This document shows, piece by piece, positions 1,806-40,767 of a DNA stretch of 64,000 bases. The DNA comes from an uncultured Planctomycetia bacterium (GTDB lineage: Bacteria; Omnitrophota; Gorgyraeia; 2-02-FULL-51-18; JAGOUK01): the NCBI GenBank assembly GCA_964430735.1, contig CAYSFB010000001.1, positions 232,674 through 296,673 of the forward strand. The letters run 5' to 3'. The position numbers and the translations under genes were made by a program. How positions within the stretch are numbered: position 1 is the stretch's first letter; the number at the start of each line of letters is the position of its first letter. The notes beneath the pieces are model-generated. The model worked only from the letters and a program-made list of their open reading frames with translations, did no database searches and was not told the origin of the DNA.

Positions 1806-1831
1806 CGTCTCAAACTCCTTTATATCGCGGA

Positions 1832-2518: not shown

Positions 2519-2522
2519 CGGA

Positions 2523-4042: not shown

Positions 4043-6003
4043 GGCTGCCTCCCGTCTTCCGGATGTTCGTCCGAATACTTCTCCGCAACGGCGAGGTATT
4101 CCTTCCAGTATCTTCTCTGAGGCTCATTGCTCATCCGCACGTCCCGGATCTTGATTTTGGATGCGGTGGTAAGCCGCTTGATCGATTCGTACAATTCCCT
4201 GGCCCTCAGATTCCAGCGGTTGCGCCGAAGAAGCGAATCGGTGTTTTTGGCCTCAAAGACGTACATCAGCATGAGGTCGGCCTTGAATTTGATGTTCGGG
4301 CTCGACAGCTCAACAGCCCGTTCCATCAGTTCGAGAGCCTGCTCGATGTTCCGCTGCGCGTAAAGAATCTGGCCCTGCAGATAATAGTACGGACCGTATT
4401 CAGGCATGAGGTTCAACGCCCGGTCCGCGGCCTGCTCCGCCTGCCCCAGCATCTCCCGTCGGGTGACAAGGTCCTTGGAGCGCGTGGCGGTCCGCAACAA
4501 CTCTCCGGCATAGGCGCTCCAACGCTCCGGATTGTGCGCGTCGACCCGGGTCAGGATCTGCAGGGTCTCAAGCTTGCTCGTGTTCAGTATTTTAGCGCGG
4601 TAGATCTGCAGTTGAAATACGGTTTCTACCCCCAAGGTGGCGATCAGCGCCGCGAGGATGCAGGCGATCACCGGAGTTCTCAGCAGGGGTTTTTCGGTGG
4701 CGGCGGGGTACCGACCGGCGGACGGGCGCTCCTCCTGAATATAGGGGTCCCGCGACCGCGCGAGCAGTCCCAGCTGCAGAACAAAATGCATGGCGACAAT
4801 CGGCACCCGAAGCAGCGAATCCGACAGCAGCATGAACCCGAACGGAATCAAAGCCAGAGCCGCCTGCGTCCGGATCATCCTCCGCTGCGAACCCGGCTGA
4901 TCGCCATTCGGCTTGAGCAGAGGCGGCACAATCAAAAAGCCCAGCATGAGCACGATCAAAACGGCTCCGACCACCCCCGCCTCGGTCAGCAGATCCAGAT
5001 AGCTGCTGTGCGCATGCTCGTAATGCCCCCAGGAATTGATCACATCGCCGACCACTGTCTCATAGGCGGGCGAAACAAACCCGAACATTCCCATCCCCCA
5101 CCCGAACAAAGGCTGTTCAACAAAGATTCTAAAATTGGTTTGAGCCAGGGACAAGCGAAGCAGAATGGACTGCTGTATGGCTTCGGCATCAAAAGCACCG
5201 CGCCACTCAGGCCCCAGATACCGGCTGCCCGCGTAAACGGCGGCAATCCCGCCGCCCGCGACCACGAGCATGATGCCTTTGAACTTGCGGAATCCGCCGA
5301 CCAATAGGACCAGGATGTAAAAAACCGTCATGACAATCAGGGCAAAACGGGCTCCGGACCAGATAAGTCCCGCCGTCAGCACGAGAGCCGACAGACCCAG
5401 CAATAAGGAAACGCCGGAGAACTTCCGCCGGAACAGGAGAGCGAAGACGATCGGAAGCGTCAGGGCCGCATAGGCCCCGTAGGCGTTTTCGTAATAAAAC
5501 ACGCCGAAGGATCGGGAAGAGATGGATGCCAGTTCCGTCCCCGCCAGGTTCCAGGTTCCGGAATACCGGTGCGCCAAACCCGACGCGGTCCCGAACAATC
5601 CGATCATCAAGCCGCCGATCAGAAGCCGGAACATCCGCTTGGGCCGCGAAAGAATCGGCAACAACGTCACCCCGAAGGCGCAAAACCCGATCCAGGCCAC
5701 GAAGGCCCTATAAATCGGGGCGTGTCCCGACCGAATGGCCGTGGTCAAAACATAAAAGGCGAAGAGGCACCCGATCAATAATGCGATCAGAATATGGGAG
5801 GGATACTCGTCTTTGGCCTTGCGGGGCGAGAGGAAGCTGATTTGCAGAGCGAGAGCAAGTATCAGGAGGGGCGGCAATAAGGCGTTGGCCCATTGAGGAG
5901 ATCCGCTCGAGGCGTACAGGCCTGCGAACAGGGCCATCCATACCGCCGCTTCATGGAGATTTCGACGCGTGATCGCGTTGTCAAAAGCCGCTGCCGGAGA
6001 CAT
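4039..6003 (-). CDS. O-antigen-ligase-like (Wzy_C) polytopic membrane protein with C-terminal TPR domain
   Basis: About 10-12 TM segments; NSWGHYEHAHSSYLDLLTEAGVVG matches the Wzy_C/O-antigen-ligase motif. C-terminal roughly 200 aa are soluble TPR-like helices. Start overlaps upstream stop by 4 nt. Confidence 0.7.
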   Translation of the reverse strand: MSPAAAFDNAITRRNLHEAAVWMALFAGLYASSGSPQWANALLPPLLILALALQISFLSPRKAKDEYPSHILIALLIGCLFAFYVLTTAIRSGHAPIYRAFVAWIGFCAFGVTLLPILSRPKRMFRLLIGGLMIGLFGTASGLAHRYSGTWNLAGTELASISSRSFGVFYYENAYGAYAALTLPIVFALLFRRKFSGVSLLLGLSALVLTAGLIWSGARFALIVMTVFYILVLLVGGFRKFKGIMLVVAGGGIAAVYAGSRYLGPEWRGAFDAEAIQQSILLRLSLAQTNFRIFVEQPLFGWGMGMFGFVSPAYETVVGDVINSWGHYEHAHSSYLDLLTEAGVVGAVLIVLMLGFLIVPPLLKPNGDQPGSQRRMIRTQAALALIPFGFMLLSDSLLRVPIVAMHFVLQLGLLARSRDPYIQEERPSAGRYPAATEKPLLRTPVIACILAALIATLGVETVFQLQIYRAKILNTSKLETLQILTRVDAHNPERWSAYAGELLRTATRSKDLVTRREMLGQAEQAADRALNLMPEYGPYYYLQGQILYAQRNIEQALELMERAVELSSPNIKFKADLMLMYVFEAKNTDSLLRRNRWNLRARELYESIKRLTTASKIKIRDVRMSNEPQRRYWKEYLAVAEKYSDEHPEDGRQP

Positions 6004-7823
6004 TACCGGTCGGTTTTTGAATTCCGAGAGTAGTAGTGGTACCCCTGATAATAATCCCGGTTCAGAGTCGTCATACGGTTCAAGATCGTTCCGTAGAGAA
6101 TGGTGTTCATCAGCTTCAGTTTTTCAATCGCCCGCATCAGCACTTTGCGCTTCAGCATCCCGCAGCCGACGACAAAGAGGGTTCCGTGCATTTTCTGGGA
6201 AATGATCGCGGCTTCCGGAATGCTGAGGAAAGGAGGCGAATCAAAAATGATCCGCTCGTACTTCGATTCGACCGCTTTGATCAGCTCGTCAAACGTCTTT
6301 GAAGTGAACAATCCTTCGGGATTTTTGGAAGCGGTGCCTGCGGAGATGATGTCGACGTTGGGCTGGCCGATGATGGGGCGGATGATCTGCTGAAGGGTCG
6401 CCGCGCCGGTCAAATAATCGGCCAAGCCCGGGGCCGACGGATCCGCGAGATCCAAGCGTCCGGTGAGCCCGGGTCTGCGGATATCGGCCTCAACCAGAAG
6501 GATCCGCTGCTCCGGCAGCCGCTCCGCCGCTCCTTTGCCGGCACCCAGATTCGCCATCGTAAACGCCAGGAGGGCGCTGATGGATGACTTCCCTTCCCCG
6601 GGTATGCAGCTCGTGATCATGATGAGCTTGTTCCGATCCTTGGGCATCGAAAAAATAAACGCCGTATGCAGCATGGCCATCGAGTCCCGGACGGCCTGAA
6701 CGTTCAGAAGATCTTCAAATTTTTCGGACTTGCAGACCTTCGAGTCGATGACGGGCATATGCCCCAGATACGGGACATTCACCATTCTCGCGAGGTCCTC
6801 CTCGCTGTTCACCGTCACGACCAGCGCGCCCATGAACATGATGAACATAAAAGAAACTATGATCCCCGCGGCGCCGAAGACCAAAACGAGCTTGGTGCGG
6901 TTCGGAGCAAAGGGCTCGTCCGCGGGCTTGGCCCGTTCAAAGATGCTCATGTTGGTGGACTTGAACTCGCTGGCGAGGTTCCGCTTGAGGCCGGCGACCA
7001 CACCGGCGGTCTCGATCTTGGTCTGCTGTTCGTTGTGCTCAATCTGGCGGAGCATTTCGATCACGGCGGGATTTTCGTCCGTGTACCGGGTCTTGAGCTG
7101 CGCGAGTTCGCTGTTCAGCCGCAATTTTTCGCGTTTGAGCTCTTGGATCGTCGGATTGTCCTGTACGCTCGGAAGACTTTCGATAAAATACGGATCGGCC
7201 ATTTTTTCCATCAGAACCGTCGGATCCGATTCCGCGCCGCCGGGAAGCAGCTTCAGCAGCTCCTGATTGCTCCTGAGACTCTGACGAAGACTCTCCTCAA
7301 TAAAGTTCTCGGCGGTCGCATTCGCGAGCTTGGACGCCCACACGGCATCGCCGTCATCCACTTGAATGTAAAAAATATTGGTTTTTTTGTACTGGAAGGA
7401 GCGGGTGTTTGCCTGCAAAAGGCCGGCTGCCTGCTGGTCGGTTGCCACGGCATAGTGGGTCTTGGCGTCCGTATCCTTCGCCGCCTGGAGGAGCACGGGC
7501 ATGCTGGTCGCTATGGCGATCTGCGTGTCAATCAGCCCCCTCACCTCGCCCGACATATTGCCGCTGATCGCTTCTCGATAGGTCGTGGTCTGTGTTTTGG
7601 CGTTGTCGACAAGGATGCTGGCGGAGGACTGATATCGGTCTTTGAGCGCGGAGGCGTAAAAAATTCCGAGGAGAACGAAGGCAAAAACAATAGTGGCGAC
7701 ATACCAGCGGTACCGCATGAACGATTCCGCGAGTTGAATAATCCCGGTTATCTCGCCCGAATCACCTTCATGTGATCCGTGATGCGGGTGATGCTCGGCG
7801 CCCCCGCTGTTCACGTTCAACAC
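6003..7823 (-). CDS. wzc: polysaccharide co-polymerase / BY-kinase (Wzc-like tyrosine autokinase)
   Basis: N-terminal TM followed by a periplasmic coiled-coil, second TM, Walker A CIPGEGKSSISALLA, ILLVEADIRRPG, and a C-terminal Tyr cluster YYQGYHYYSRN. GTG start at 7823; His-rich N-terminus. Confidence 0.85.
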   Translation of the reverse strand: MLNVNSGGAEHHPHHGSHEGDSGEITGIIQLAESFMRYRWYVATIVFAFVLLGIFYASALKDRYQSSASILVDNAKTQTTTYREAISGNMSGEVRGLIDTQIAIATSMPVLLQAAKDTDAKTHYAVATDQQAAGLLQANTRSFQYKKTNIFYIQVDDGDAVWASKLANATAENFIEESLRQSLRSNQELLKLLPGGAESDPTVLMEKMADPYFIESLPSVQDNPTIQELKREKLRLNSELAQLKTRYTDENPAVIEMLRQIEHNEQQTKIETAGVVAGLKRNLASEFKSTNMSIFERAKPADEPFAPNRTKLVLVFGAAGIIVSFMFIMFMGALVVTVNSEEDLARMVNVPYLGHMPVIDSKVCKSEKFEDLLNVQAVRDSMAMLHTAFIFSMPKDRNKLIMITSCIPGEGKSSISALLAFTMANLGAGKGAAERLPEQRILLVEADIRRPGLTGRLDLADPSAPGLADYLTGAATLQQIIRPIIGQPNVDIISAGTASKNPEGLFTSKTFDELIKAVESKYERIIFDSPPFLSIPEAAIISQKMHGTLFVVGCGMLKRKVLMRAIEKLKLMNTILYGTILNRMTTLNRDYYQGYHYYSRNSKTDR

Positions 7824-8474
7824 TTAGAACAGGGACTCCGGAACGTAAATGGAATCACCCCGGGAAATGGCCGGATCTTCCGCGCGTCCTTCGAGCACAT
7901 CGAACAGATTGTACACCTTGGTCTGGCGGGTTCCGGTCGCATACGACACGACTTTAACGGCACGCGGATTGGCGGAAACGCCGAATCCACCAGCCTGCGC
8001 AATCGCCTGAAGGAGGGTTGAACCCTCGGGATTCAGGGCTTGAAGCCCCTGGCTCTTCACCTGGCCGAGCACGATCACCGTATTGGCGTCCGCCGCTTGC
8101 GAGCCGTTGCTATTGATCGCCTCTTCGACATGGTCGATCCGGACCAGCGGATCTTTGATGAACTTTTTAAGACCCTCGGTCAGCGCCACCCTGAAGCTTT
8201 CCATCGACAGTCCGGCCGCCTGGGCTTCTCCGATCATCGGAAAAATGATCTTCCCTGTTTCGTTGACGCGGTACTGGCCGGTCAGATTCTTTTCGTTAAA
8301 GACATCAATGGCCAGCAGATCCCCCGTCGAAATGACTCGGTGGGCGGCTTGCGCGGTGGCGGACACAGGAGCCGTTTCGCCCGCGTCGGCGGCGCAGAGG
8401 GAGGCCGAAAACACCACAAGTCCGGATAGGGCCAGACCGAAAAATCGGCTGAGGCCTTTAGAATTTTTTTTCAT
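7824..8474 (-). CDS. short outer-membrane polysaccharide export (OPX/Wza-family, Poly_export+SLBB) protein
   Basis: Signal peptide MKKNSKGLSRFFGLALSGLVVFSASLCAA, then a Poly_export-like region and an SLBB-like C-terminus. Only 216 aa, so it lacks the Wza C-terminal OM helix. Track start 8534 trimmed to ATG 8474. Confidence 0.75.
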   Translation of the reverse strand: MKKNSKGLSRFFGLALSGLVVFSASLCAADAGETAPVSATAQAAHRVISTGDLLAIDVFNEKNLTGQYRVNETGKIIFPMIGEAQAAGLSMESFRVALTEGLKKFIKDPLVRIDHVEEAINSNGSQAADANTVIVLGQVKSQGLQALNPEGSTLLQAIAQAGGFGVSANPRAVKVVSYATGTRQTKVYNLFDVLEGRAEDPAISRGDSIYVPESLF

Positions 8475-9897
8475 AACTGATCTCGCATATTTGGTTGGTG
8501 CGGTCACTCGTTTTAATGGTGGTATCGACATCAAGGAACATGTAATTCAATTGAAGGCTCGAAGTGGAGTCGATGGCGTAAACAAGAGAGACATTGGTGT
8601 CCCAGCGGACATCCTGCCGCGAAACATTGACCGTGCTGTTCGGATAATCCGGATCCTGAAATATGACGGGATCTGCGTCGTAATCGATCAAACGCACCGA
8701 CTGCCCCGCCCGAAGCGAGATGTGGCGCGTTGCTTGATAGTCGACCGACAGTCCGAACGTGTAGTTAAGAGGGTCGGTGGCTGTTTGCGTGACCTGCGGG
8801 ACATAGTCGGATTGCGAAGTCAGCGTAAAGCGGGTCTTGGCCGAATACAGATAAGTCAGAGCCGCCGCGTAAAGAAAAGCGTCCCGCGACTCAGTCCCGT
8901 CCAGATCCCCCTCGGTGATTTGGTAAATCAAGCGGGTGCGGTACAACAACTTGTCCGTAAACTTGCCGTTAAAGCCGGTGTAGATATTGTCGAAGTCCAC
9001 ATCGACCATGACGCCCTCCGGCGGCCGGCTGAGACGCTTGGTGTAACCGTTGACCCATTCGATTCTGTCCGAAAGATCGTATGCGAGGTTCAAGTCGAGG
9101 TCGTGGGCGCGGGAACTGATGTTGCTCTTGGTGTCGGACAAAAATGAGCGTGCGCTCAGTCCGTAGCTCGCCTTCAGTCGCATTTTGTCCGATACGGTGA
9201 ACAGCGACTCCACGGAATAGGAATGAGTCATGTACTGGGAAGGCTTCTGAGTATCGAGTTCGGTCCGAATGGCGGACATCCCAAAATTGCCGGTGAAGTT
9301 CCACGCGATCCTCCCCCCGCGCGAAAGCGACTGGGTCCAATCATGATCCGCCCGGTCGTTGTGGTCAAAGTTCTGGTGCAGCAGCCGTGTCAGCTCGTAA
9401 TCGCTGCGGTAAGTCCAGCCGTTCCAGCGGCCGGTCGCTTCGATGCCGGGGCTGTAGGAATAAATGATTTCGGGCTCGGCATCAATGCGCTTTTCGAAGA
9501 CGTTGCTCTCGGCCCGCGTCTTCATCCCGATGGTCGGATGCAGATCCAAGGGCACATTCGTCCGTTCCGCGCTCGCCTGCAAGCCAAAAAGCTCTTTGAG
9601 ATTATCCTTGGGAATAACCGGCTGTTGCGAATCGACCGTGGTCAGACCCTTGTCCTGCGGGCTTTTTTTTCCTGCGGTGCCGGCGGGGCTCTCGGTTCGG
9701 ATGCTTTCTTCGATCTGCCGGGAGGTCAGGGCGAGCTCTTCAAGCTGGGTGTCAATATCCTTCCGAAAGTCTTCCAGCACCTTCGAGGATTGTTTGCGGT
9801 TCAGGCTTTCGAGCTCGCTTTCGAACGACGCGTGAGCGGTCCACGAAAAGGCGAACGAACCTGCCAGCAGAAGGAATGCGGTTTTTTTATGCATCAA
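8458..9897 (-). CDS. outer-membrane beta-barrel protein, likely partner of the short OPX protein
   Basis: Signal peptide MMHKKTAFLLLAGSFAFSWTAHA; alternating amphipathic beta-strand pattern throughout; C-terminal ...YEKKF aromatic terminus typical of OM barrels. Encoded immediately upstream of the short OPX gene with a 17-nt overlap. Confidence 0.55.
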   Translation of the reverse strand: MMHKKTAFLLLAGSFAFSWTAHASFESELESLNRKQSSKVLEDFRKDIDTQLEELALTSRQIEESIRTESPAGTAGKKSPQDKGLTTVDSQQPVIPKDNLKELFGLQASAERTNVPLDLHPTIGMKTRAESNVFEKRIDAEPEIIYSYSPGIEATGRWNGWTYRSDYELTRLLHQNFDHNDRADHDWTQSLSRGGRIAWNFTGNFGMSAIRTELDTQKPSQYMTHSYSVESLFTVSDKMRLKASYGLSARSFLSDTKSNISSRAHDLDLNLAYDLSDRIEWVNGYTKRLSRPPEGVMVDVDFDNIYTGFNGKFTDKLLYRTRLIYQITEGDLDGTESRDAFLYAAALTYLYSAKTRFTLTSQSDYVPQVTQTATDPLNYTFGLSVDYQATRHISLRAGQSVRLIDYDADPVIFQDPDYPNSTVNVSRQDVRWDTNVSLVYAIDSTSSLQLNYMFLDVDTTIKTSDRTNQICEISYEKKF

Positions 9898-9924
9898 AAA
9901 TGACGGCTGTTTTCAGCCCCCTGA

Positions 9925-10353
9925 TTACGGAGTTACGATGGTGCCGGACGGCGTTTCGACCAGCAGCAGGTTTTGGTTCGCCTCGACAATCTCGTCTTCT
10001 TGCGCGGCCGTGAGGTTCTCGCCCAGCGCCGCGATCGATTGCTGCTCCAGAGTCGCTTCTTCGATCTGAGTTTGCGCCTCTTCAACTGCCGCATTGAGCG
10101 CCGCGCGCTCGGAGTCCGTAATGCTGGAATCCGCCAATTTCGTCATTACCGCCGCCAAAGCCTCTTCCGCAAGCACACGGCCGTAGGACTTCAATCCGGC
10201 TTGGGCGTCCGCCTGGGTGTAGGGGCGGTAGGTCCCTGAGCCCTCGTCAAAAAACACCTTGTACGGGTTCTCGAAGGTCGGCTTCAGCGAAGCGGCCATC
10301 CCGGGCGCCGCGATTCCCAAACACAGAGCGAGAATCAATGCTGATTTTTTCAT
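9925..10353 (-). CDS. secreted hypothetical protein
   Basis: Signal peptide MKKSALILALCLGIAAPGMAAS; Ala/Glu-rich helical C-terminal half; no recognisable family. Confidence 0.5.
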   Translation of the reverse strand: MKKSALILALCLGIAAPGMAASLKPTFENPYKVFFDEGSGTYRPYTQADAQAGLKSYGRVLAEEALAAVMTKLADSSITDSERAALNAAVEEAQTQIEEATLEQQSIAALGENLTAAQEDEIVEANQNLLLVETPSGTIVTP

Positions 10354-11225
10354 GATTTGCTCCCGGTAGTCTTTTCATCCATGCTCAAGCTGAACATCAG
10401 TTCACCAGAAAAATTATGCACCTTTGTGCTGCCGTCCGGCTCAAGTGTTCCCACGGACATGACAGAATCGGGTCCCTCCAAACGGAACGTGAGCGGCGCA
10501 AAATCCGGTTGCAGCACCAACGTTTCCCCCGGAATCAGGCTTCTAAATTCACGGCCGGAAGCCGTAGGAACCGCGATCTCGGCCTTCTGTGCATGCAACA
10601 CGCGAAGGGTTTCTTGTGACTTCCTGTCGGAGCGCAAATAGTCAATCGCGGGACCCAGCTTGGCGATGACTTTGGCCGCACCGCGGGGAATCAATGAATG
10701 CGTCTTGATCTTTTCGGATCCGGAAACCAGCGCCGTGCTGCCGGACTCGAGGCTGATTTCCGGCTCACCGCCGACGGGGCGGATTCGGGCAGGGCGGCTG
10801 GAGTTGGCCAGCGAAACGAACGTGCTGTTCGCGCGGCTGAAAAGATAAATGTCGCCGAATCCGTTATCGGTCACGACCTCGAACTTTTCGGTCGCCAACG
10901 CGAGTCTTGGAGCGTCGCGGACGATCAGCTCGCCGACACGGAGTGTAATCTTGGTCTCCTGGAGCAATAGGGAGGAATTCTGAAATATTTGAAGATATCC
11001 ACCGCTGGCTTTTTGAAGAAAAAGCACCCCGCCCACATCGACGGTAATGCGCTCATCATCCAGCTTGGTCTGGGGAAGTAGCGTGCTGACCGCCTTACCC
11101 TGAACATCCGTGGTATAAGCGCCCGAAGCATACAAAACCTCGTACTCGGCTGCCTGGGCTGGCGCCGTTAGTCCAAGACTTATTAAAAACAAACCGATCG
11201 AGAAGCGTAAGGCCTTCATACTCAT
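10350..11225 (-). CDS. secreted hypothetical protein (alternative leaderless start at 11219)
   Basis: Signal peptide MKALRFSIGLFLISLGLTAPAQAA. The first ATG (11225) lies 1 nt after a TATAAT box; the third codon (ATG 11219) is 7 nt after it. Confidence 0.5.
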   Translation of the reverse strand: MSMKALRFSIGLFLISLGLTAPAQAAEYEVLYASGAYTTDVQGKAVSTLLPQTKLDDERITVDVGGVLFLQKASGGYLQIFQNSSLLLQETKITLRVGELIVRDAPRLALATEKFEVVTDNGFGDIYLFSRANSTFVSLANSSRPARIRPVGGEPEISLESGSTALVSGSEKIKTHSLIPRGAAKVIAKLGPAIDYLRSDRKSQETLRVLHAQKAEIAVPTASGREFRSLIPGETLVLQPDFAPLTFRLEGPDSVMSVGTLEPDGSTKVHNFSGELMFSLSMDEKTTGSKS

Positions 11226-11226
11226 A

Positions 11227-11254
11227 ATTATACATTTTTGTATATTAGAGTCAA
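11227..11254 (-). promoter_or_regulatory. near-consensus sigma70 promoter TTGACT-16-TATAAT
   Basis: Minus-strand reading gives ccaTTGACTctaatatacaaaaatgTATAATtATGAGTATG. The -10 ends 7 nt before ATG 11219, suggesting a leaderless transcript. Confidence 0.45.
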
Positions 11255-11295
11255 TGGAAGATTACTATAATATTAAATGTAAAAGCGGGTGGGCT

Positions 11296-13155
11296 CTAAG
11301 CGAACTTTTGCTCTTGCCAGGCCTGGTAGAACTTCCCCCTTAGAGCGAGCAGGTCGTCCATCGCGCCGGATTCCAGAGCTTTACCGTCTTCCATGTAGAC
11401 GATATGGTCGGCGTTTCGGATGGTCGAGAGCCGATGGGCAACCACAACGGCTGTTTGACCATGCATTAGCTCGTTTAACGCTTCTTGGACCAAGTTCTCT
11501 GTTCCCGAATCCAAAGCGCTGGTGGCTTCATCTAAAAGAAGGATTTGGGACTTTTTTAACATCGCGCGAGCGATCGATACGCGCTGACGTTCTCCTCCAG
11601 ACAGCGTAACGCCCCGCTCGCCAATCACGGTATGGATCCCGTCAGGGAGCTTCTGGACCACATCCAAAAGCCGGGCGCGTCGGATCGCTTCTTCGAGTTC
11701 GCCCGCATCCACGTCGCGCTCGATACCGAAGAGGAGATTGTTTTTGAGGGTGTCCGCAAAAATCACCACATCCTGACTGACCCAGGCAACCCTCCTTCGC
11801 AGCGAGTCGATCGAATATTCCCGGATATCGATCCCGTCAATCAGAATCGCGTCCGGCGCGCAGTCATAGAAGCGCAGTAAAAGATGAATGATGGTTGATT
11901 TGCCGGCCCCACTGGGTCCGACCAGCGCCGTCATTTTTCCGCGCGGCAGCTTGAGATGAAGCCGCTTCAAAATCGGCTGACCGCCGCCGTAGCCGAATGT
12001 AAGATCTTTGACCTCGATCCCCTGCTTCAGAGACTCGAACTCCCGGACTCCGCCCTTCACATACGGTTTTCCCTCATCTTCCAAAACCTCGAGCACTTCG
12101 CGGATCGGGCTGGCAACCGATGCCAAATCGGCCTTGAACTGGTTGAAGACATGGACGGTGTAAATCATGCGTCTGAGAATATAAAAGAAGACGATGTAGG
12201 AAGCCGCCGATGCGGCCTGATGCCGGGCCATCAGCACCGACATGAAGCCGAGCATGATCAGCAAAAAAACCAGCGAAAGAATTTCCTGGGCCGGCGGAAC
12301 GATCAGCCGCTTTTGATCAATGCTGAATTCGGCGGTGAGGAGCCGCTCGCTCAGGCGACGGTATTCGGCCGTCTCGAGCTTTTCGGAACACTGGGATTGG
12401 ATCAGCGGAATCCCTTGAAGGATATTCACCGTTTTTTGGCTGAGAGCGGCGCGCGCCGAGCGGTCGGCTTCCGAGGATGTTTTAATCCGGTTGATGAGCG
12501 ATCGAAGTGAGAGCATGAGGAGCGGGATCATCAGCAACGCCACCAGCGTCAGCTGCCAGGAGATGATGCAGATCCCCGCCGCATAAATCAGAATCAGGAA
12601 CACGGCGCTCAACAGTCCGTTCAGACCAGAAAGCGCCTGCATGATGCGGACCGGATGGGTCATCAGCACTTGAGCCACTTCGCCGGTGCCGGCGCGGTCA
12701 AAATAAAGCTTTCCGAATTTGAGGTACCGATCGATCAGGAGTATCCGGAGATCGTGATTGAGCTTTCTGGCCTGATGCCAAAGAATAATTTGACTGAGGT
12801 AGGTCGCCAGACTCTTCAGAGTCATGGCCGCCACGAGCGCCAGAATCAGCAGTGCAAAAAGAGCGGTATTGGAAGACTGGGCCTCCGCCGGAAGCAGAGC
12901 GGTCACGTGCCGGATCATCGACGATTGATTCACGAATGAATAGTCGTGGGCCAAAAAACCCTGGATCAGCGGCGTCATCACAATCAGGGCCATCGCCTCG
13001 AAGGCGGAAGCGGCCAGCGCAAAGAACACCGGAACCATGATGTGTTCCGGACGCGCTTTGAGCGCCGACAAGAACTTGACTACTTTGATCGAGCCCTCGT
13101 AGAGCGCGTTCTTATTTTTCATGTTTGAAGACAAACTGGGGTAGTTTTTGAACAT
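11296..13155 (-). CDS. fused TMD-NBD ABC exporter (MsbA/PglK-like) within polysaccharide locus
   Basis: Six-TM N-terminal domain; Walker A GPSGAGKST; signature LSGGERQRVSIARAML; Walker B ILLLDEATSALD. An alternative ATG at 13122 (MKNKNALYEG) would reduce overlap with the upstream GT2 gene. Confidence 0.8.
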   Translation of the reverse strand: MFKNYPSLSSNMKNKNALYEGSIKVVKFLSALKARPEHIMVPVFFALAASAFEAMALIVMTPLIQGFLAHDYSFVNQSSMIRHVTALLPAEAQSSNTALFALLILALVAAMTLKSLATYLSQIILWHQARKLNHDLRILLIDRYLKFGKLYFDRAGTGEVAQVLMTHPVRIMQALSGLNGLLSAVFLILIYAAGICIISWQLTLVALLMIPLLMLSLRSLINRIKTSSEADRSARAALSQKTVNILQGIPLIQSQCSEKLETAEYRRLSERLLTAEFSIDQKRLIVPPAQEILSLVFLLIMLGFMSVLMARHQAASAASYIVFFYILRRMIYTVHVFNQFKADLASVASPIREVLEVLEDEGKPYVKGGVREFESLKQGIEVKDLTFGYGGGQPILKRLHLKLPRGKMTALVGPSGAGKSTIIHLLLRFYDCAPDAILIDGIDIREYSIDSLRRRVAWVSQDVVIFADTLKNNLLFGIERDVDAGELEEAIRRARLLDVVQKLPDGIHTVIGERGVTLSGGERQRVSIARAMLKKSQILLLDEATSALDSGTENLVQEALNELMHGQTAVVVAHRLSTIRNADHIVYMEDGKALESGAMDDLLALRGKFYQAWQEQKFA

Positions 13156-13870
13156 TTTTCAAAAAAACCGTCCACATAGGATGAGGAATGCCGGCTGCCC
13201 TGCAAATCCTGAGGTCCTCCAGGGACTTTTGCGCCATGGCGCCGATGTTACGGTTGCTGGCTCCGCCGAGTCTCATGCGCACGCAAAGCCGGTCCAGGTA
13301 ATGCGTCGAAATCCCCTCCCGGTACAAAAGCCGGAGCATCAGCTCGTAATCCGCGGCGATCCGGTACCGGACGTCGTATCCGCCGTAATCGCTGTACAGC
13401 TGGCGCTTCACAAAAAATGCCGGATGCGGAGGCATCCACCCGCGGAGCATCTGCCGCTTGCCGCCAATTCCTGATTTCCAGTACCGCACCGTGCGCTGGA
13501 GATCGGTCCGGCGCACATACGCCACATCACCGTACACACAATCGGCGCCCGTGACCTCAAATGCTTTGACGACGTCGGCAAGGACGGATGGATCGGCGTA
13601 AGCGTCGTCTCCATTCAAGACGGCGATCACGTCGCCGGTCGCGCACCCGATCCCCTTATTGATTCCTTCGTACATCCCGCCGTCTTTTTCCCGGACATAC
13701 CCGGCCAGCCGGCTCCCGTACTCTCGCACCACCTCCGGAGTGTTATCCGTCGAACAGGCGTCAATCACCCAATGCTCGATATCGGGGTGCGTCTGATCGC
13801 GAACGCTCTGAAGGCAGGACGCAAGCGCCGGGCCGCAGTTGAGAGACGCGGTGATGACCGATACCTTCAA
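13112..13870 (-). CDS. glycosyltransferase family 2
   Basis: MKVSVITASLNCGPAL...DACSTDNT...NGDD (DxD-type) GT-A fold motifs. TTG is the only in-frame start after the upstream stop. Confidence 0.8.
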   Translation of the reverse strand: MKVSVITASLNCGPALASCLQSVRDQTHPDIEHWVIDACSTDNTPEVVREYGSRLAGYVREKDGGMYEGINKGIGCATGDVIAVLNGDDAYADPSVLADVVKAFEVTGADCVYGDVAYVRRTDLQRTVRYWKSGIGGKRQMLRGWMPPHPAFFVKRQLYSDYGGYDVRYRIAADYELMLRLLYREGISTHYLDRLCVRMRLGGASNRNIGAMAQKSLEDLRICRAAGIPHPMWTVFLKNVQKLPQFVFKHEK

Positions 13871-13877
13871 CGGGAGA

Positions 13878-14429
13878 TCACGCGCTCATTTTTCTCGGTC
13901 GAACCGCTTGCGCCGGATTGCCCGCATAAATGGTCCAGGCCTCCAGATGGCCGGTAGCCACACTGCCGATGGCCAGCACGGCGCCCTCTCCGACGGTGAC
14001 GCCGGACGCGACGATGGAGCGGGCGCAGATCCAGCACCCCTTCTCCAAACGGATGGGAGATGCGGTCAGGCGGAAGGCCGGGTCGGTCCAATCATGATTG
14101 CCGTTTCCGATATACGCGCCTTGCGAAATGCAAACGTCCGAACCGATCTTCACGGACACGATATTATCAATCCATACGCGCTCGCCGATCCAGGAGTCGT
14201 CGCCGATCTCAAGCTTCCAGGGATATTTGACGTGCACGGACGGCTTGATCACGACTCCCCGCCCGATTTTGGCGCCAAAGCCGGTCAACACCGCCCGTTT
14301 GACTCCGCTCCAGACGCAGAGCGGGTTCCGCAGCGTCAACAGGCTTGTGATTTGCCAGCAGGCGTCGATCAGGATCGAGCGCCCCCGAACACCGGGTTCC
14401 GGTCTAAAATTTTTATTGTTGATCTGCAT
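13878..14429 (-). CDS. hexapeptide-repeat acetyltransferase (WcaF-like)
   Basis: Left-handed beta-helix repeats (IGDDSWIGERVWI, IGSDVCISQGAYIG). Trimmed to ATG 14429 (MQINNKN). Confidence 0.75.
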   Translation of the reverse strand: MQINNKNFRPEPGVRGRSILIDACWQITSLLTLRNPLCVWSGVKRAVLTGFGAKIGRGVVIKPSVHVKYPWKLEIGDDSWIGERVWIDNIVSVKIGSDVCISQGAYIGNGNHDWTDPAFRLTASPIRLEKGCWICARSIVASGVTVGEGAVLAIGSVATGHLEAWTIYAGNPAQAVRPRKMSA

Positions 14430-14514
14430 GTGCCGGCCTCCGCTCCGCATATTTGATCTTCATCCCTGCCGCATCCATCATATCCCACGAAGCTCTGTTT
14501 TGGGACGGGCGCCG

Positions 14515-15696
14515 TCAGGACGCCAACCGCTCCAGCGCTTCGGCGGCGGGATTGCTCCGCTCGTCCCAACTCAAATGTTCGAGAACATAGTCGTGCCCGG
14601 TTCGGCCCATCGCTTCGGCGCGAAGCGGATCGGCGAGTAAACGGTTCACCGCTTCCACAAGCGCCTCCGGGTCCGGCGACGCAATCAGCCCCATCGCGCC
14701 GTCCAGCTGCGGCCAGCCGCATCCGGGAGACGCAACGACCGGAATGCCGTAGCTGAGGGCCTCGGGGATCGTCAACGGCTTATCGTCCGCTGACGGCAAT
14801 ACGAACAAATCCGCCGAGCAGAACATTTCCTCTTTGGCTTTGCCGGCCACCGCGCCGGCAAAAGTCACGCTCCGGTCCAGTCCGAGCCGGGCGACCTCGT
14901 TCCGGATCTGCCGCATGTAATCCTTGTCTTCGACGGGTCCCGCGGCGATCAGCCTGGCATCAGGATTCTTCGCCAAAATCCCCGGCATGGCGCCAATCAG
15001 ATGAACGAGTCCTTTCTTCGGGTGAATCCGCCCCAGATAAAGAATGACGGATTCGCCGGCCTGGCGGCTGTGACGGGCGGCTTCGCGCTTTTCGCGGGCG
15101 GCCTTCACGGCGGCGCGATGTGTGCGCGGCAGATAGACACTCCGGTCGGGGTGCCGGATTCCGCTGCGATCCATGATGCCGAACTCGTCCTCGCGCATGA
15201 CAAAAACGGCACGTGCACGGTCGAGATTGTTTTTTTCGAACAGATTCCAATAAATTTTTTTCCGCAAAGGCTTCTGAGCCAGACTCCAGGGGGTCAGCAT
15301 GTTGTGTGTGAACACAACGTACGGAATACCCCTTCGGGCGCACTCGGCGGCGGCAAACGTGCACGGAAATCTCCACAAGCCGTGGATGCACACCATTTGA
15401 GAGCGCTCCGCCAGCACCCGGAACCGGCTCACAAAATCGGGCGAATACGCCAAAGGCAAGCCTGAAGCACCAGCCAGCCGGACCGGAATATCGACGGTCC
15501 GGCCGCCGGCCGGACGGATGCAAACACGCTCGGTTCCGCCCAAGCCCGGGGCTCCGATCGCCAGAATCGTCACCGCGTGACCGCGGGTTCGCAATGCCGC
15601 GGACAATTCGCCGATCAGCTCGACGGGCCCGCCGACCTGCGGCCCCCAATAGGAGACCACCTGAAGCACGTTCAGACGGCGCGCGTCCGGACTCAT
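14515..15696 (-). CDS. glycosyltransferase family 4 (GT-B)
   Basis: N-terminal domain LNVLQVVSYWGPQVGG and C-terminal EGLG-like motif. Start set at the ATGA overlap (15693-15696) with the upstream gene's stop. Confidence 0.8.
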   Translation of the reverse strand: MSPDARRLNVLQVVSYWGPQVGGPVELIGELSAALRTRGHAVTILAIGAPGLGGTERVCIRPAGGRTVDIPVRLAGASGLPLAYSPDFVSRFRVLAERSQMVCIHGLWRFPCTFAAAECARRGIPYVVFTHNMLTPWSLAQKPLRKKIYWNLFEKNNLDRARAVFVMREDEFGIMDRSGIRHPDRSVYLPRTHRAAVKAAREKREAARHSRQAGESVILYLGRIHPKKGLVHLIGAMPGILAKNPDARLIAAGPVEDKDYMRQIRNEVARLGLDRSVTFAGAVAGKAKEEMFCSADLFVLPSADDKPLTIPEALSYGIPVVASPGCGWPQLDGAMGLIASPDPEALVEAVNRLLADPLRAEAMGRTGHDYVLEHLSWDERSNPAAEALERLAS

Positions 15697-17015
15697 GTCC
15701 GCAAGCCTGCGGCCCATTTTCGGCCGCGCTTGGTCATTCCAAAATAATCACGGCGAACCCACAGCAGCAAAAAACACGGCCAAAACGCCATCCCCGTCCA
15801 CGCGATGACTCCGGGCAGATCGCCTCCGCGCAAGAGCGGTATCAGCACCGCGCAAAAAATGGCCTGCACCATAAGACCCGGGAACGGCCGGATCTCAAGG
15901 CTGTAATTCATAATCGCGGCAAAAAGCGCTCCATAAATCACGGACAGCAGCAAAATACCGATCCATCCGCCCTCCGCATAAAATGTTCCGATCAAAGTCG
16001 GAGAAATTCCCACCGTCCCCTGCCCGTCATCGATCGTCCAGCCCAATTTATTCATATACCCGCCGACGGGTTTGTTGTGCCACCAGGCGCGCGGAATCGG
16101 TCTCAGGAGCACTTCCAGATGCTCGCCTCCTTTGGAGTACGGAAGCATCTTGGGGTAAATTTGCCGCAACATGACGAACCCGTCCAGCATATTGGCGTCT
16201 TCCGCCTGGATGGCCCGCTGTATCGACAAGTCTTTGAGAGCTTGAGATTGGTCGTAAGTTTTAATGGTGCGCACGCTTCCAGAAGCCGAAAAAGCCGTCA
16301 ACGCCGCGACGCCGACCAAGGCATAAACGATGACCTTGATGCGGGGCTGAAGCCCCGCGGTCACGACCATTGCAGACGCGATGATCCATCCCAGTAATTG
16401 GAAACGTCCGTAAGGCTGGAACGTCTGAAAAATAAAGGCGATCACAACCATGAGCCCGAGAGACTGGGTCAGCGGAATCCTGAAATATCCGAACTTCCAC
16501 AGCAAAACGGTCAGCAGCATGATGCCGATCATGACCATGGGAAACAGGGACAGGTATCCGCTGATATCAAACGCCTGCGAAGCGCCTTGAATCACCTGCT
16601 CCATCACCTGGCGGCGCAGCATGATCACCATAGGCAGACATGCCGCCCCGAACAGCAGAACTTGGGGTCCAAGCCAGTTTAAAAAAGCCCGGTCCGGCAC
16701 CGTTCGCAAAATATGCACCGGCTTTCGGCGTGCAAAACAGTACGTGATCAGTAAAATCGTCTGCCCGAGGATGATATAGAGCAGCGCTTCGCGGGCCGCC
16801 TCGGAAGAGATTGGATCAAAACTCCATTCGTCTGACATGACCACCCAACGGCCGATGCCCGACGTCGCCGAAAAATAACGGTAAGCGCCCGAATACAAAA
16901 GGAAGCTGCTGATGATGAGCGGGACGACGTCGTTCATGCTAATCAACCAATACATCCCAAAAACCGTCAGAACGACCTGGATCCCTAGAAGAATGTCAAA
17001 ATCAAGTATGGGCAT
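15693..17015 (-). CDS. wzy: Wzy-like oligosaccharide repeat-unit polymerase (polytopic membrane protein)
   Basis: About 10-11 TM helices plus one large periplasmic loop with RPIPRAWWHNKP; no nucleotide-binding motifs. Trimmed to ATG 17015 (MPILDFDILLG), which overlaps the upstream stop. Confidence 0.6.
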   Translation of the reverse strand: MPILDFDILLGIQVVLTVFGMYWLISMNDVVPLIISSFLLYSGAYRYFSATSGIGRWVVMSDEWSFDPISSEAAREALLYIILGQTILLITYCFARRKPVHILRTVPDRAFLNWLGPQVLLFGAACLPMVIMLRRQVMEQVIQGASQAFDISGYLSLFPMVMIGIMLLTVLLWKFGYFRIPLTQSLGLMVVIAFIFQTFQPYGRFQLLGWIIASAMVVTAGLQPRIKVIVYALVGVAALTAFSASGSVRTIKTYDQSQALKDLSIQRAIQAEDANMLDGFVMLRQIYPKMLPYSKGGEHLEVLLRPIPRAWWHNKPVGGYMNKLGWTIDDGQGTVGISPTLIGTFYAEGGWIGILLLSVIYGALFAAIMNYSLEIRPFPGLMVQAIFCAVLIPLLRGGDLPGVIAWTGMAFWPCFLLLWVRRDYFGMTKRGRKWAAGLRT

Positions 17016-18225
17016 CGCATGCTCCGATAAGTTGACGCCCCAACCGGCTGATTCCGGACCCGGATGGCAAAACCGACCGGTCCGACTGTGCCTTGAGCCG
17101 GGAAGGATTAAGGAGATAGGACCGCAGCGCATCGGCGACGGCCTTCCCGCTGATCTCCCTGAGAACCGTGCCGTTTTCTCCGTCCCTCACAACAGCGCCG
17201 CAACGATCCGAAACGATCAGCGGCAGACGGTGCGCCTGCGCTTCAAGCTGCGTCAGGGCAAACCCGTCGGAGTGCGTCGGCAAAATAAAGACGTCCGCAG
17301 CCCGGTAATGGCCGGCCGCTTCCAACCGGCTCACCCGGCCCCGAAGACGCACGTTGGCGCATCCGGCAAAAAGCCCGTTCACGGCCGCATCCGCCGGACC
17401 CACGACGGAGAATTCAACCGGCTGCCCCTCAAGCATCCGGGCCGCCTCCGCCAACTCGGCCGCACCTTTCCGGAGACCCACCTGGCCCAAAAAAAGAACG
17501 CGCAAAGGGCGGTCGTGCGAAAAAGTCGGAGGATAGGAACGGGGGGCTAAGGATGCGGATCCGGCAGAATCATAAGCCAGCGGGATGGTGACGATTTTAC
17601 GCGCCGGCACTCCGGCCCGCCGCAATCCCTGGGCGGACCAATCGGAATTGACGATGATGATGTCGGCGAGGGCAGTTTCTTCGCGCCAATCGTCCCAATA
17701 GCCGGACGGGACGGGGTCAGGGGCCGGGACAATCCCAGCGTACTTGGCGTACAACTCGCGGACAATCTCTTCCTCATACGGACCTGGATCGATTTGACCC
17801 AGCACCGTCGTCCAGCCCGAGGCCTTGGCAAAACGGAACGGCTTCAGCGCCGTATAGCTGTAAGAAAATAGAATCTGGCGATTTTTTTTTGATTCCGAAA
17901 CGAGCCCGGACAATCGGGCAACACACCGGTCCTGGAACCAGCGGTTGCGGGCCAGAACCTGCGCCCAGCCCCGGACACCTTTGAGCCGCAACCCGCCTTC
18001 GAGCGCAAGCAGACGGCCGGTGAATGCGTGGACAGGGGCCGACGCCAGAGCGGAATCGAACCGTCCCTTTAAGGCGTTTGAATGGGCCCACACGGATTTG
18101 GGCCGAACCCAAGCGTCGGTAAGCAAAGCGCTGAGCCGGGACTCGAGATGCAGCGCGCGGGGAATCGCATAATGCTCCCGCGCGCCCAACTGGCAACAAA
18201 TCCAGGATCGGGACCGGTCAGACAT
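17002..18225 (-). CDS. glycosyltransferase family 4 (GT-B)
   Basis: GT-B C-terminal domain with ...FILPTHSDGFALTQLEAQAHRLPLIVSDRCG. Trimmed to ATG 18225 (MSDRSRSWICC). Confidence 0.75.
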   Translation of the reverse strand: MSDRSRSWICCQLGAREHYAIPRALHLESRLSALLTDAWVRPKSVWAHSNALKGRFDSALASAPVHAFTGRLLALEGGLRLKGVRGWAQVLARNRWFQDRCVARLSGLVSESKKNRQILFSYSYTALKPFRFAKASGWTTVLGQIDPGPYEEEIVRELYAKYAGIVPAPDPVPSGYWDDWREETALADIIIVNSDWSAQGLRRAGVPARKIVTIPLAYDSAGSASLAPRSYPPTFSHDRPLRVLFLGQVGLRKGAAELAEAARMLEGQPVEFSVVGPADAAVNGLFAGCANVRLRGRVSRLEAAGHYRAADVFILPTHSDGFALTQLEAQAHRLPLIVSDRCGAVVRDGENGTVLREISGKAVADALRSYLLNPSRLKAQSDRSVLPSGSGISRLGRQLIGACDAHT

Positions 18226-19342
18226 GGTCCGCGGCGGGTTGGTGCATGTTTCCAAAAATGTTCTGATCGATGGCCTCAAACCAGCCGACAGCCAATTCGC
18301 GCGTACCGGCTTCGTTGAAATGTACGAAGAGGGGGCCCTCCCGGTACCGGGCTTCCGCCAGACGGTCCGTGTCGGGCCCGCAGATGACCGTTCCGTCCAG
18401 GCATAGCTGCCGCTGCGCGGTCCGAACCGATTCAGAAGTCACGCGTCCGTTGTAGGTCGAAACCGCGACCATCCAGGGAATGTCGACGTCCGACCGGTCG
18501 CGGGCAGACTTGATGATTTGAACGAGGCGGTCCCGGTACTCTTCGGTGCTCATGTGCCCGTCCGACTCGCCCTGCGCCCACAACACGGCTCTCGCGCCGT
18601 TGGGACCCGCGGCCTTCATCGCCTTCACGAGGCGATTGAAGTTTGCGCTGCCCGGCTCCCATTTGCGGATACTGCTTCCACCCTCGGCGACATTGATCCA
18701 TCCCACCGGCACACCGAGTTTTTGAACCAACAGATCTCCCGTCAGCGGCCAATGCGATCCGCCTCCTCCGCGAATCTGCGGATCATCCCCCCGCATCCAC
18801 CGCAGACTCCCGTCCGCCTGAACCTGCCCCTTCCGCACGTCATCGCTCGTTGCCTGAAAAAGGGTCGAGCTGCTTCCGGAGGCATTCGATTGACCCGCCA
18901 CCAGAAACACCTCCCCCGCTCCCAACATAAGACTGTTGGCGGACCGAAATCCCTCGCCATGACTGCGGCCGAAGATACGGCTCCATCCGTCTTGAACCTG
19001 GACATTGCCGGCAAAACGCGACATCTTGGGTGCGGCATCCAAAGATACCCAATCCTCCGGCCGGACAGGGTCTTGAGCACGGGCTGGCGGCATGACGCAA
19101 ACTTCCACGGACTTGGCCCGGATTCCGCACCGGCCCAAAAGACTCACAACGGTTCTTTCGCCGTCGGAACGCTGGATCACCTGGCCGTCCTGAATATCCC
19201 AGGAATAAATCTTCGTACCCAGACAGAACCGATCGCGGAGAACTTCGTCGTACTTCAGGATTCCCAGAAAGGCCGCGAATGCGGTGACGGTCAACAACGC
19301 CGGGACAGCCAAACGCGCAGGGGTCCGGTGGGACGTTGGCAT
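18218..19342 (-). CDS. membrane-anchored carbohydrate esterase (DUF303/sialate-O-acetylesterase-like, SGNH-type)
   Basis: N-terminal TM anchor and the FLVAGQSNASG motif (GQSNMxG-like) of DUF303 esterases. Confidence 0.55.
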   Translation of the reverse strand: MPTSHRTPARLAVPALLTVTAFAAFLGILKYDEVLRDRFCLGTKIYSWDIQDGQVIQRSDGERTVVSLLGRCGIRAKSVEVCVMPPARAQDPVRPEDWVSLDAAPKMSRFAGNVQVQDGWSRIFGRSHGEGFRSANSLMLGAGEVFLVAGQSNASGSSSTLFQATSDDVRKGQVQADGSLRWMRGDDPQIRGGGGSHWPLTGDLLVQKLGVPVGWINVAEGGSSIRKWEPGSANFNRLVKAMKAAGPNGARAVLWAQGESDGHMSTEEYRDRLVQIIKSARDRSDVDIPWMVAVSTYNGRVTSESVRTAQRQLCLDGTVICGPDTDRLAEARYREGPLFVHFNEAGTRELAVGWFEAIDQNIFGNMHQPAADHV

Positions 19343-19872: not shown

Positions 19873-19914
19873 TATAGCACCAACGGGACGACGGGCAGAC
19901 CGGCTGCCGGCGGT

Positions 19915-26142: not shown

Positions 26143-26169
26143 CTGGCACTCCAAAAAGTGGAGTGCTAG
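26143..26169. promoter_or_regulatory. CIRCE operator 2 (CTGGCACTC-N9-GAGTGCTAG)
   Basis: 7/9 and 8/9 arm matches to CIRCE. Lies immediately upstream of the -35 and overlaps the hflX stop codon. Confidence 0.6.
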
Positions 26170-40715: not shown

Positions 40716-40767
40716 AGGCCGGCTATTTTAGCATCGCCTCCAACACCCGTGTTATAATTCACCGATT

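Follow-up and report, generated by a model that had tools for sequence, protein, structure and literature searches.

A 64-kb stretch of a contig from an Omnitrophota bacterium, referred to here as the window, carries an operon for polysaccharide assembly, and in the middle of this operon lies a gene for a fused ATP-binding cassette (ABC) exporter, designated ABC1. All genes from 19872 to 1832 are encoded on the minus strand and are tightly packed, with overlaps or with gaps of no more than 105 nt (Table 1). An earlier reading of the window from its sequence, called here the original prediction, counted 17 genes at 2.5-19.9 kb. The minus-strand operon stands. However, 16 genes lie within 2523-19872, and the number reaches 17 only when the metallophosphatase gene at 1832-2518 is included.

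Component identities were checked with Pfam and NCBIfam profiles, and transmembrane (TM) segments were predicted by hydropathy alone. The profiles verified the whole inventory of the original prediction, namely a WecA-like transferase, three glycosyltransferases (GTs), a Wzy-like protein, a Wzy_C-family protein with tetratricopeptide repeats (TPR), Wzc and an outer membrane polysaccharide export (OPX) protein. They also verified that the exporter amid the operon is of half size, with a transmembrane domain (TMD) fused to a nucleotide-binding domain (NBD) (PF00664 and PF00005, 11296-13122). Wzc belongs to the class 2a polysaccharide co-polymerases (PCP-2a) and combines a Wzz domain with a bacterial tyrosine kinase (BY-kinase) domain.

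Table 1. Genes of the operon in order of transcription, followed by the island and the second ABC half-transporter of the window (aa, amino acids; HexNAc, N-acetylhexosamine)
Feature	Position	Strand	Evidence and remarks
Hexapeptide-repeat acetyltransferase, first operon gene	19342-19872	-	PF00132 48.3 bits
SASA/SGNH-type carbohydrate esterase-like protein, membrane-anchored	18218-19342	-	PF03629 78.6 bits; one N-terminal TM segment
GT4 glycosyltransferase	17002-18225	-	PF13692 69.4 bits, PF00534 59.9 bits
Wzy-like repeat-unit polymerase, 440 aa, about 10 TM segments, large periplasmic loop	15693-17015	-	
GT4 glycosyltransferase, HpsP-like	14515-15717	-	PF00534, PF13692; NF038295 HpsP 148 bits, below cut-off
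WcaF-family polysaccharide O-acetyltransferase	13878-14429	-	NF007797 210.8 bits, above cut-off of 192
GT2 glycosyltransferase	13112-13870	-	PF00535 91.8 bits; stop overlaps ABC1 start by 11 nt
ABC1, fused TMD-NBD type IV ABC half-transporter, 608 aa	11296-13122	-	PF00664, PF00005; proposed lipid-linked repeat-unit flippase
Secreted protein without family, 291 aa	10350-11225	-	no Pfam or NCBIfam match; signal peptide by inspection
Secreted protein without family, 142 aa	9925-10353	-	no Pfam or NCBIfam match; N-terminal hydrophobic segment
Outer-membrane beta-barrel, EpsL/BBP2-like, 478 aa	8458-9894	-	TIGR03014 EpsL 35.9 bits, PF10082 19.1 bits, both below cut-off
Short OPX protein, 216 aa, Poly_export and one SLBB domain	7824-8474	-	PF02563 57.9 bits, PF22461 29.5 bits
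Wzc-type PCP-2a co-polymerase/BY-kinase (Wzz and tyrosine-kinase domains)	6003-7718	-	PF02706 28.1 bits; TIGR01007 109.1 bits, above cut-off of 108.05
Wzy_C-family (polymerase/ligase-like) membrane protein with C-terminal TPR	4039-6003	-	PF04932 45.4 bits, PF07719 27.6 bits
WecA/MraY-family polyprenyl-phosphate HexNAc-1-P transferase (primer)	2900-4042	-	PF00953 106.1 bits; TIGR02380 119 bits, below cut-off of 326
PilZ-domain protein, putative c-di-GMP receptor	2523-2903	-	PF07238 33.3 bits; start overlaps WecA stop
Calcineurin-like metallophosphatase, last island gene	1832-2518	-	PF00149 36.4 bits; NF008516 Ser/Thr phosphatase 58 bits, below cut-off
Island of 18.1 kb, exactly the operon, between DUF1015 and pirin genes	1797-19923		absent from sister contig L127
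ABC2, second ABCB-type half-transporter, outside the operon	38901-40715	-	best family TIGR02203 MsbA_lipidA 545 bits, cut-off 602

Architecture and family of ABC1

The open reading frame (ORF) of ABC1 spans 11296-13155 on the minus strand and encodes an ABC_membrane domain (72.5 bits) followed by an ABC_tran domain (111.6 bits). Its true start is probably at 13122, because this start agrees with the public gene call and with the N-terminal length of homologues; its ATG overlaps the TAA stop codon of the GT2 gene. An elbow helix (residues 2-20) precedes the TMD, which begins at residue 25, and neither a C39 peptidase nor a CLD N-terminal domain is present in the protein. ABC1 has the architecture of a type IV (ABCB-like) exporter half-transporter, in which a six-helix TMD is fused to a C-terminal NBD, and its motifs are intact: Walker A (GPSGAGKST), the signature (LSGGERQR), Walker B with the catalytic glutamate (LLLDEATSALD) and the H-loop (AHRLST). 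The AlphaFold2 (AF2) model (mean predicted local distance difference test score 89.9) has the fold of a classical type IV exporter. The best Foldseek matches of this model in the PDB are MsbA structures, with 27-30% identity and a query-normalized TM-score of 0.74-0.85, and TM-scores reach 0.90 for MsbA and TM287/288. PglK is not among the top 50 matches, and PCAT1 first appears at rank 41.

Among the NCBIfam families, HepA gives the highest score (NF045513; 477 bits against a cut-off of 725). It is followed by MsbA (TIGR02203, 378 bits against 602; NF008381, 313 bits against 867), MsbA_rel (306 bits), NdvA (296 bits), the NHLM exporters (272 and 256 bits), HlyB (238 bits), bacteriocin_ABC (236 bits) and PglK (NF050066; 201 bits against 1000), and the scores for HlyB, bacteriocin_ABC and the NHLM exporters are far below the respective cut-offs. 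By sequence, ABC1 is thus MsbA/HepA-like, and the label of a PglK-like transporter, which the original prediction had offered, has to be replaced. A grouping of ABC1 with peptide or bacteriocin exporters, which the same prediction regarded as fatal to its own proposal, was not found: the HepA and MsbA scores exceed those of HlyB and bacteriocin_ABC. ABC1 is not a peptide exporter.

A second half-transporter of this type, ABC2, is encoded in the window among housekeeping genes. It scores 471 bits with the HepA model and best with the MsbA model. Because ABC2 is likely the housekeeping lipid A flippase (MsbA), ABC1 would be a dedicated paralog. Directly upstream of the ABC2 gene lies a 421-aa ORF without any family (40759-42024).

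The ABC1 clade and its gene neighborhoods

Relatives of ABC1 were collected by two scans, and individual loci are denoted by L numbers. A GTDB scan with a full-length ABC alignment returned at least 80 loci. NBD motifs dominated this search, and phmmer placed nearly all of these loci nearer to ABC2 than to ABC1; they encode mainly MsbA-like proteins. The genome of the window was not among the loci returned. A metagenome scan with a four-sequence, TMD-only alignment returned 33 loci, all of which are closer to ABC1. In a tree of 108 sequences, built by neighbor joining only and without PglK, HepA and ExsA reference sequences, the 31 ABC1-type sequences form one clade with a bootstrap value of 95/100, and cyanobacterial sequences (L010, L011 and L092) form its sister group.

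The ABC1 clade differs from MsbA at positions that are presumably in contact with the substrate. In E. coli MsbA, the basic ring that touches the lipid A phosphates is taken here to consist of R78, R148 and K299, and the E. coli reference sequence used for alignment was confirmed to be identical to PDB 3b5w_A. Position 78 is lysine in 31/31 sequences of the ABC1 clade. Position 148 is occupied by the non-basic residues N, F, S, T or Y. At position 299, glycine is found in 19/31 sequences and the commonest residues include none that is basic, whereas the MsbA-like sequences have lysine in 40 cases and arginine in 12. The clade has a basic cavity pair of its own in TM6, R317/R318, which is basic in 74-77% of its members as compared with 1-9% of the MsbA-like sequences, and an RYLSFGK motif is conserved in the clade. 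This residue pattern fits a different anionic lipid-linked substrate, without identifying it.

For the nearest relatives of ABC1, which are 57% and 53% identical, the surrounding loci are syntenic, with the gene order acetyltransferase-GT2-ABC and the same start/stop overlap. These loci also encode a polymerase-like protein of 455-462 aa, WecA, a beta-barrel protein, OPX, Wzc and Wzy_C; they contain no MOP gene (of the multidrug/oligosaccharidyl-lipid/polysaccharide flippase superfamily, which includes Wzx). Full synteny with the operon of the window is seen in L004, L005, L006 and L094, and the GT2-to-ABC overlap recurs in L004, L005 and L094. More distant relatives (38-40% identity) are encoded behind a GT4 gene, in neighborhoods that include AsnB-like, NusG-like and NDP-sugar genes.

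Components of polymerization and export recur throughout the clade. OPX, Wzc and Wzy_C(TPR) genes adjoin the ABC gene in L096, L097 and L118, and at least part of this set is near it in L111 and L121. The gene order is OPX-Wzc-Wzy_C-GT4-ABC-GT4...WecA in L106 and GT2-Wzy_C-GT4-GT4-ABC-Bac_transf in L098, and a Wzy_C gene is directly upstream of the ABC gene in L107 and L113. Homologues of the Wzy_C-TPR protein of the window adjoin the ABC1-clade gene in L096, L097, L118 and L121. GT-C enzymes (PMT_2) adjoin clade members in L008, L108, L114 and L116. The immediate same-strand neighbors of the ABC genes (n = 42) include eight GT4 and five GT2 enzymes, eight NDP-sugar epimerases or dehydratases, three AsnB-like and three CapD-like proteins, two pyruvyl transferases and two NusG-like proteins.

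A recurring locus type with AsnB-like and NusG-like genes is represented by L096, L099, L100, L101 and L118. In one sub-branch of the clade, an AsnB-like amidotransferase gene is downstream of the ABC gene (L096, L100, L101 and L118), and a NusG/UpxY-like antiterminator gene is directly upstream of it in L099, L100 and L118. In L096, an NDP-sugar epimerase gene is immediately upstream of the ABC gene, and the OPX-Wzc-Wzy_C(TPR) genes are farther upstream.

The clade loci were screened for MOP proteins by running Pfam on each ORF of at least 300 aa with at least six hydrophobic segments. These ORFs encode Wzy_C, weak O-ag_pol_Wzy matches, PMT_2, H+-PPase, YidC, PGT or nothing recognizable, and not one of them encodes a MOP protein, across about 35 independent environmental contigs of the ABC1 clade that were covered over at most 10 kb to either side of the ABC gene and often less. 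As a positive control, the same screen finds one MatE and one Polysacc_synt protein in MsbA-like loci. A related locus of Leptolyngbya ohadii contains OPX, a WecA-like gene and GTs and no MOP gene.

A probably self-contained operon without Wzx

The window was searched for MOP proteins by six-frame translation of the 64 kb, in which hydrophobic segments were counted and ORFs of at least 200 aa with at least five segments were retained. Only four ORFs passed this count, and they encode WecA, the Wzy_C-TPR protein, the polymerase-like protein and ABC2; ABC1 was not flagged at this cut-off. None of them matches Polysacc_synt, Polysacc_synt_3/C, MurJ or MatE, even at E values of up to 5. The 64-kb window therefore contains no MOP-family Wzx, as the original prediction had stated for the locus. 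A Wzy-type polymerase, a PCP-2a (Wzc) co-polymerase/BY-kinase and an OPX exporter are all present, so that the pathway encoded at the locus has every defining feature of a Wzx/Wzy-dependent pathway but Wzx.

The polymerase-like protein (15693-17015) was also considered as a cryptic flippase. This candidate was rejected: its Foldseek TM-score to MATE transporters is 0.14, its homologues with 45-50% identity, mostly cyanobacterial, carry the annotation 'oligosaccharide repeat unit polymerase' or 'O-antigen polymerase', and it has a weak match to TIGR04370. A Foldseek search of its model against the PDB gave nothing significant, and phmmer searches of this protein and the Wzy_C-TPR protein against the PDB gave TPR or chance matches only. 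The product of 15693-17015 is a polymerase-type protein (SEDS/Wzy-like) and not a MOP flippase.

The named relatives of the DnaK encoded in the window, at 91%, 79% and 76% identity, belong to Candidatus Omnitrophota. A sister Omnitrophota contig, L127, whose DnaK is 90% identical, shows the same chromosomal region in the absence of the operon. Its gene order is ClpB...GrpE-DnaK-DnaJ-Zn-ribbon-DUF1015, which is followed directly by pirin. In a blastn alignment, L127 13464-14721 corresponds to window 21178-19924 and L127 14742-15790 to window 1796-784, and this break at window 1796/19924 identifies the intervening 1797-19923 as an insertion. The GC content is 0.55-0.61 over 2-20 kb as compared with 0.61-0.63 in the flanks. 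Neither direct nor inverted repeats flank the ends of the island, and no integrase is encoded in it. The operon is probably a mobile, self-contained cassette. If the genes move together as one unit, a flippase should be among them; this adds weight to the assignment of ABC1 but is no proof of it. A second difference between the two contigs is found at L127 4974-8300, where a gene for a 1108-aa SNF2/SWIM helicase lies between hflX and hrcA and is absent from the window (26151-26527).

The module acetyltransferase-GT4-polymerase-GT4-(WcaF) of the cassette (window 13878-19872) is syntenic in Nostoc and Chthoniobacteraceae (L090 4635-15087; L091 6953-12431), and the polymerases of these modules are 45-50% identical to that of the window. 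This suggests that the biosynthetic half of the cassette has passed between phyla.

In the export half of the operon, the OPX and beta-barrel genes overlap translationally, and the same pair in the same order is found in L005 and L006. A composite export model with a truncated OPX protein and a beta-barrel protein (Wzp) has been described for Myxococcus (PMC9603273), and by analogy the beta-barrel protein of the window is probably a Wzp-type porin partner of the short OPX protein. Wzc has two TM segments and a C-terminal tyrosine cluster with the tail ...DYYQGYHYYS. No Wzb or PHP phosphatase is encoded among the operon genes. Of the two proteins encoded at 1832-2903, the PilZ protein may convey c-di-GMP signals to the priming enzyme, and the calcineurin-like phosphatase may be a non-canonical counterpart of the Wzc kinase. 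The genes for the two secreted proteins (9925-11225) sit between those for ABC1 and the beta-barrel protein; they occur only in contigs of this strain and were not found in the syntenic loci L005, L006 and L094. In the 70-nt gap after the ABC1 stop codon, a near-consensus sigma-70-like promoter (TTGACT-16-TATAAT, 11/12 matches) is located at 11227-11254 on the minus strand, which could serve as an internal promoter for the export half. A scan of the region for promoters and terminators gave a count no higher than the shuffled expectation.

Elsewhere in the window, a 1298-aa ORF with no Pfam match (60057-63953, minus strand) occupies a stretch of lower GC content (0.54-0.57) at the window end, and a tRNA-Lys(TTT) gene (35858-35933, minus strand) is the sole RNA gene found by Rfam and ARAGORN.

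Proposed pathway, alternatives and significance

We propose, with a probability of about 0.5, that the island encodes a complete Wzy/Wzc/OPX-type exopolysaccharide (EPS) pathway whose flippase is the dedicated MsbA/HepA-like ABC1 instead of a MOP-family Wzx. By homology, the WecA-like enzyme would prime undecaprenyl phosphate (Und-P) with HexNAc-1-P. The two GT4 enzymes, the GT2 enzyme and the cytoplasmic acetyltransferases would then assemble the repeat unit on undecaprenyl pyrophosphate (Und-PP) at the inner face of the membrane. The ABC1 gene is translationally coupled to that of the last GT (GT2), and in the key step an ABC1 homodimer would use ATP to flip the lipid-linked oligosaccharide to the periplasmic face. 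There, the SEDS/Wzy-like polymerase, possibly together with the Wzy_C-TPR protein, would polymerize it under the control of the Wzc tyrosine autokinase, as the homologies suggest. The short OPX protein and the beta-barrel protein would carry the polymer across the outer membrane by analogy to Wza and Wzp of Myxococcus. More speculatively, the PilZ protein and the metallophosphatase might act as pathway regulators. Wzk of H. pylori and PglK can stand in for each other, and in an E. coli wzx mutant Wzk brings back the O16 antigen (PMC2841628). This complementation sets a precedent for an ABC flippase that serves a Wzy pathway, although the pathway of H. pylori itself is without Wzy and Wzz (PMC2841628). 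Geobacter XapD (GSU1501) was also considered as a precedent and dropped, as it is annotated only as 'ABC transporter ATP-binding protein'.

Several points weigh against this proposal. The window is a 64-kb part of a metagenome-assembled genome, on a contig of 303 kb, and a wzx gene may lie elsewhere in the genome. No ABC or MOP gene is found within 10 kb of the GT4-polymerase-GT4 modules of Nostoc and Chthoniobacteraceae, which means that flippases can be encoded far away. In no curated family does ABC1 reach the trusted cut-off. Two TMD motifs were used to recruit the metagenome loci, which are therefore a biased sample, and many of their contigs are short. Because some members of the ABC1 clade have PMT_2 rather than Wzy neighbors, the substrate may not be uniform across the clade. 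Finally, we infer every activity in the pathway from the genes present, their families, the predicted folds and the comparison of loci.

The first alternative, which we regard as unlikely, is that ABC1 is accessory or modulatory. A Wzx encoded elsewhere would flip the repeat unit, and ABC1 would export a lipid anchor, a low-molecular-weight fraction or an Und-P-monosaccharide for periplasmic decoration. Such a role is consistent with the coverage of the MOP screen, which extends over the 64-kb window of the genome, and with the polymerase modules of Nostoc and Chthoniobacteraceae. The PMT_2 GT-C enzymes that adjoin some clade members are users of Und-P-sugars and hint at the flipping of Und-P-sugars by some of these transporters. 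In S. meliloti, ExsA, an MsbA-like exporter of the exo cluster, reportedly alters only the size of succinoglycan, with ExoT as the Wzx of that system. However, Wzx proteins are substrate-selective and the operon is a self-contained 18-kb insertion, so that it is less likely to depend on a pre-existing Wzx of the host. The screen of the approximately 35 related loci turned up no MOP gene, and the locus in the window has no GT-C enzyme.

It is rather improbable that the locus follows an en-bloc route of the Helicobacter type, in which the whole glycan or a long oligomer would be assembled on Und-PP in the cytoplasm and flipped by ABC1, Wzy_C would act as a WaaL/PglL-like ligase that passes it to an acceptor, and the polymerase-like protein would be secondary. 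The trio of WecA, ABC exporter and Wzy_C is as in H. pylori, Wzy_C is the commonest multi-TM neighbor of the ABC1 clade, and PF04932 also covers ligases and O-oligosaccharyltransferases. However, H. pylori is without Wzy and Wzz, and the locus in the window encodes a distinct SEDS/Wzy-like polymerase, a Wzc kinase of class PCP-2a and an OPX protein paired with a beta-barrel. These are hallmarks of periplasmic polymerization and export of free polymer, which makes the en-bloc route less likely, and the presence of just three GTs suits a short repeat unit.

ABC1 is very unlikely to export polymer in the manner of the classical ABC-dependent systems, or to lie in the operon by chance and serve type I secretion or the export of bacteriocins or drugs, even though it is an ABC exporter with two family-less secreted proteins encoded directly downstream: ABC-dependent capsule and O-antigen systems employ separate type V transporters (Wzm/Wzt or KpsM/KpsT) and PCP-3 proteins, whereas here the exporter is a fused type IV protein, and the co-polymerase is of class PCP-2a, carries a kinase domain and scores only 22 bits with the KpsE family; ABC1 lacks C39 and CLD domains, no HlyD-like membrane-fusion partner was recognized among the operon genes, and peptide and type I secretion families reach 160-272 bits as compared with 477 for HepA; both secreted proteins carry their own Sec signal peptides; and the coupling of ABC1 to GT genes is tight and conserved.

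The replacement of Wzx by ABC1 is the best-supported reading, a still unproven proposal at roughly even odds. For the hybrid route outlined in the original prediction, the recurrent context without MOP genes in about 35 contigs and the self-contained island are favorable, whereas the flipping itself is what we infer.

A comparison with known systems yields three different nearest counterparts. MsbA of E. coli (3b5w, 7ph3 and 6bpl) is the best structural match; both are type IV half-transporters with a length of about 600 aa that form homodimers (presumably so in ABC1), and the lipid-linked oligosaccharide flipped by MsbA (lipid A-core) parallels the substrate proposed for ABC1. Unlike MsbA, ABC1 remains below the MsbA cut-off, its clade lacks two of the three basic residues that contact lipid A, and its gene is in an EPS operon and not among lipopolysaccharide genes, while a closer MsbA homologue, ABC2, is encoded in the same window. 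The HepA family of the heterocyst envelope polysaccharide of Anabaena/Nostoc is the top curated family of ABC1 and is reflected in the cyanobacterial sister group of its clade. HepA is presumably required for a secreted envelope polysaccharide, and ABC1 is likened to it by its genomic association with EPS genes. However, ABC1 is below the equivalog cut-off of this family, and its host belongs to Omnitrophota and not to the cyanobacteria. No description of the HepA mechanism was found in the full-text literature searched.

PglK of C. jejuni and Wzk of H. pylori resemble ABC1 in its proposed function, namely ATP-driven flipping of an Und-PP-linked glycan in a pathway that starts with WecA or PglC and has no Wzx. 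The mechanism of PglK involves arginines in the cavity and an external helix (PMC11706664); ABC1 has the clade-specific arginines of TM6 and, in the AF2 model, short helices in the TM1-TM2 loop. In contrast to the locus in the window, the pathways of PglK and Wzk lack Wzy, Wzz/Wzc and OPX, and they end in en-bloc transfer of the glycan to protein or lipid A. ABC1 would work most like PglK and Wzk, looks most like MsbA and appears phylogenetically nearest to HepA-like proteins. The remainder of the locus resembles the Wzx/Wzy pathways with Wzp for EPS, BPS and MASC of M. xanthus, which share the primer, the GTs, a Wzy-type polymerase, a PCP-2a/BY-kinase and a truncated OPX protein with an adjacent beta-barrel. 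Unlike these pathways, the locus has an ABC exporter instead of a MOP-family Wzx.

Polysaccharide assembly is divided in the textbook scheme into Wzx/Wzy-dependent, ABC-transporter-dependent and synthase-dependent routes. To our knowledge, ABC flippases of lipid-linked glycans (PglK and Wzk) occur only in en-bloc, polymerase-free pathways. A full-text search, outside of which much of the subscription literature lies, found no paper in which a Wzy/Wzc/OPX locus has an MsbA/HepA-like ABC exporter for its flippase. As a tentative extension, which we hold somewhat short of even odds, the ABC1 clade and its HepA-like sisters may define a widespread, hitherto unrecognized fourth route, in which an MsbA-like, ATP-driven half-transporter, in place of Wzx, feeds Und-PP repeat units into a Wzy/Wzc/OPX(+Wzp) machine, and this would also give the mechanism of HepA.

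The locus bears on the biology of Omnitrophota, for which functional data are scarce: in this phylum, EPS cassettes would move as complete islands. If the proposal is true, the combination of an MsbA/HepA-like ABC flippase with Wzy polymerases, Wzc and OPX, which recurs in nature, would constitute a genuine hybrid route, and it would account for many environmental EPS loci that seemingly have no flippase. It would also offer ATP-driven and possibly less substrate-selective flippases for glyco-engineering, and would suggest a role for cyanobacterial HepA.

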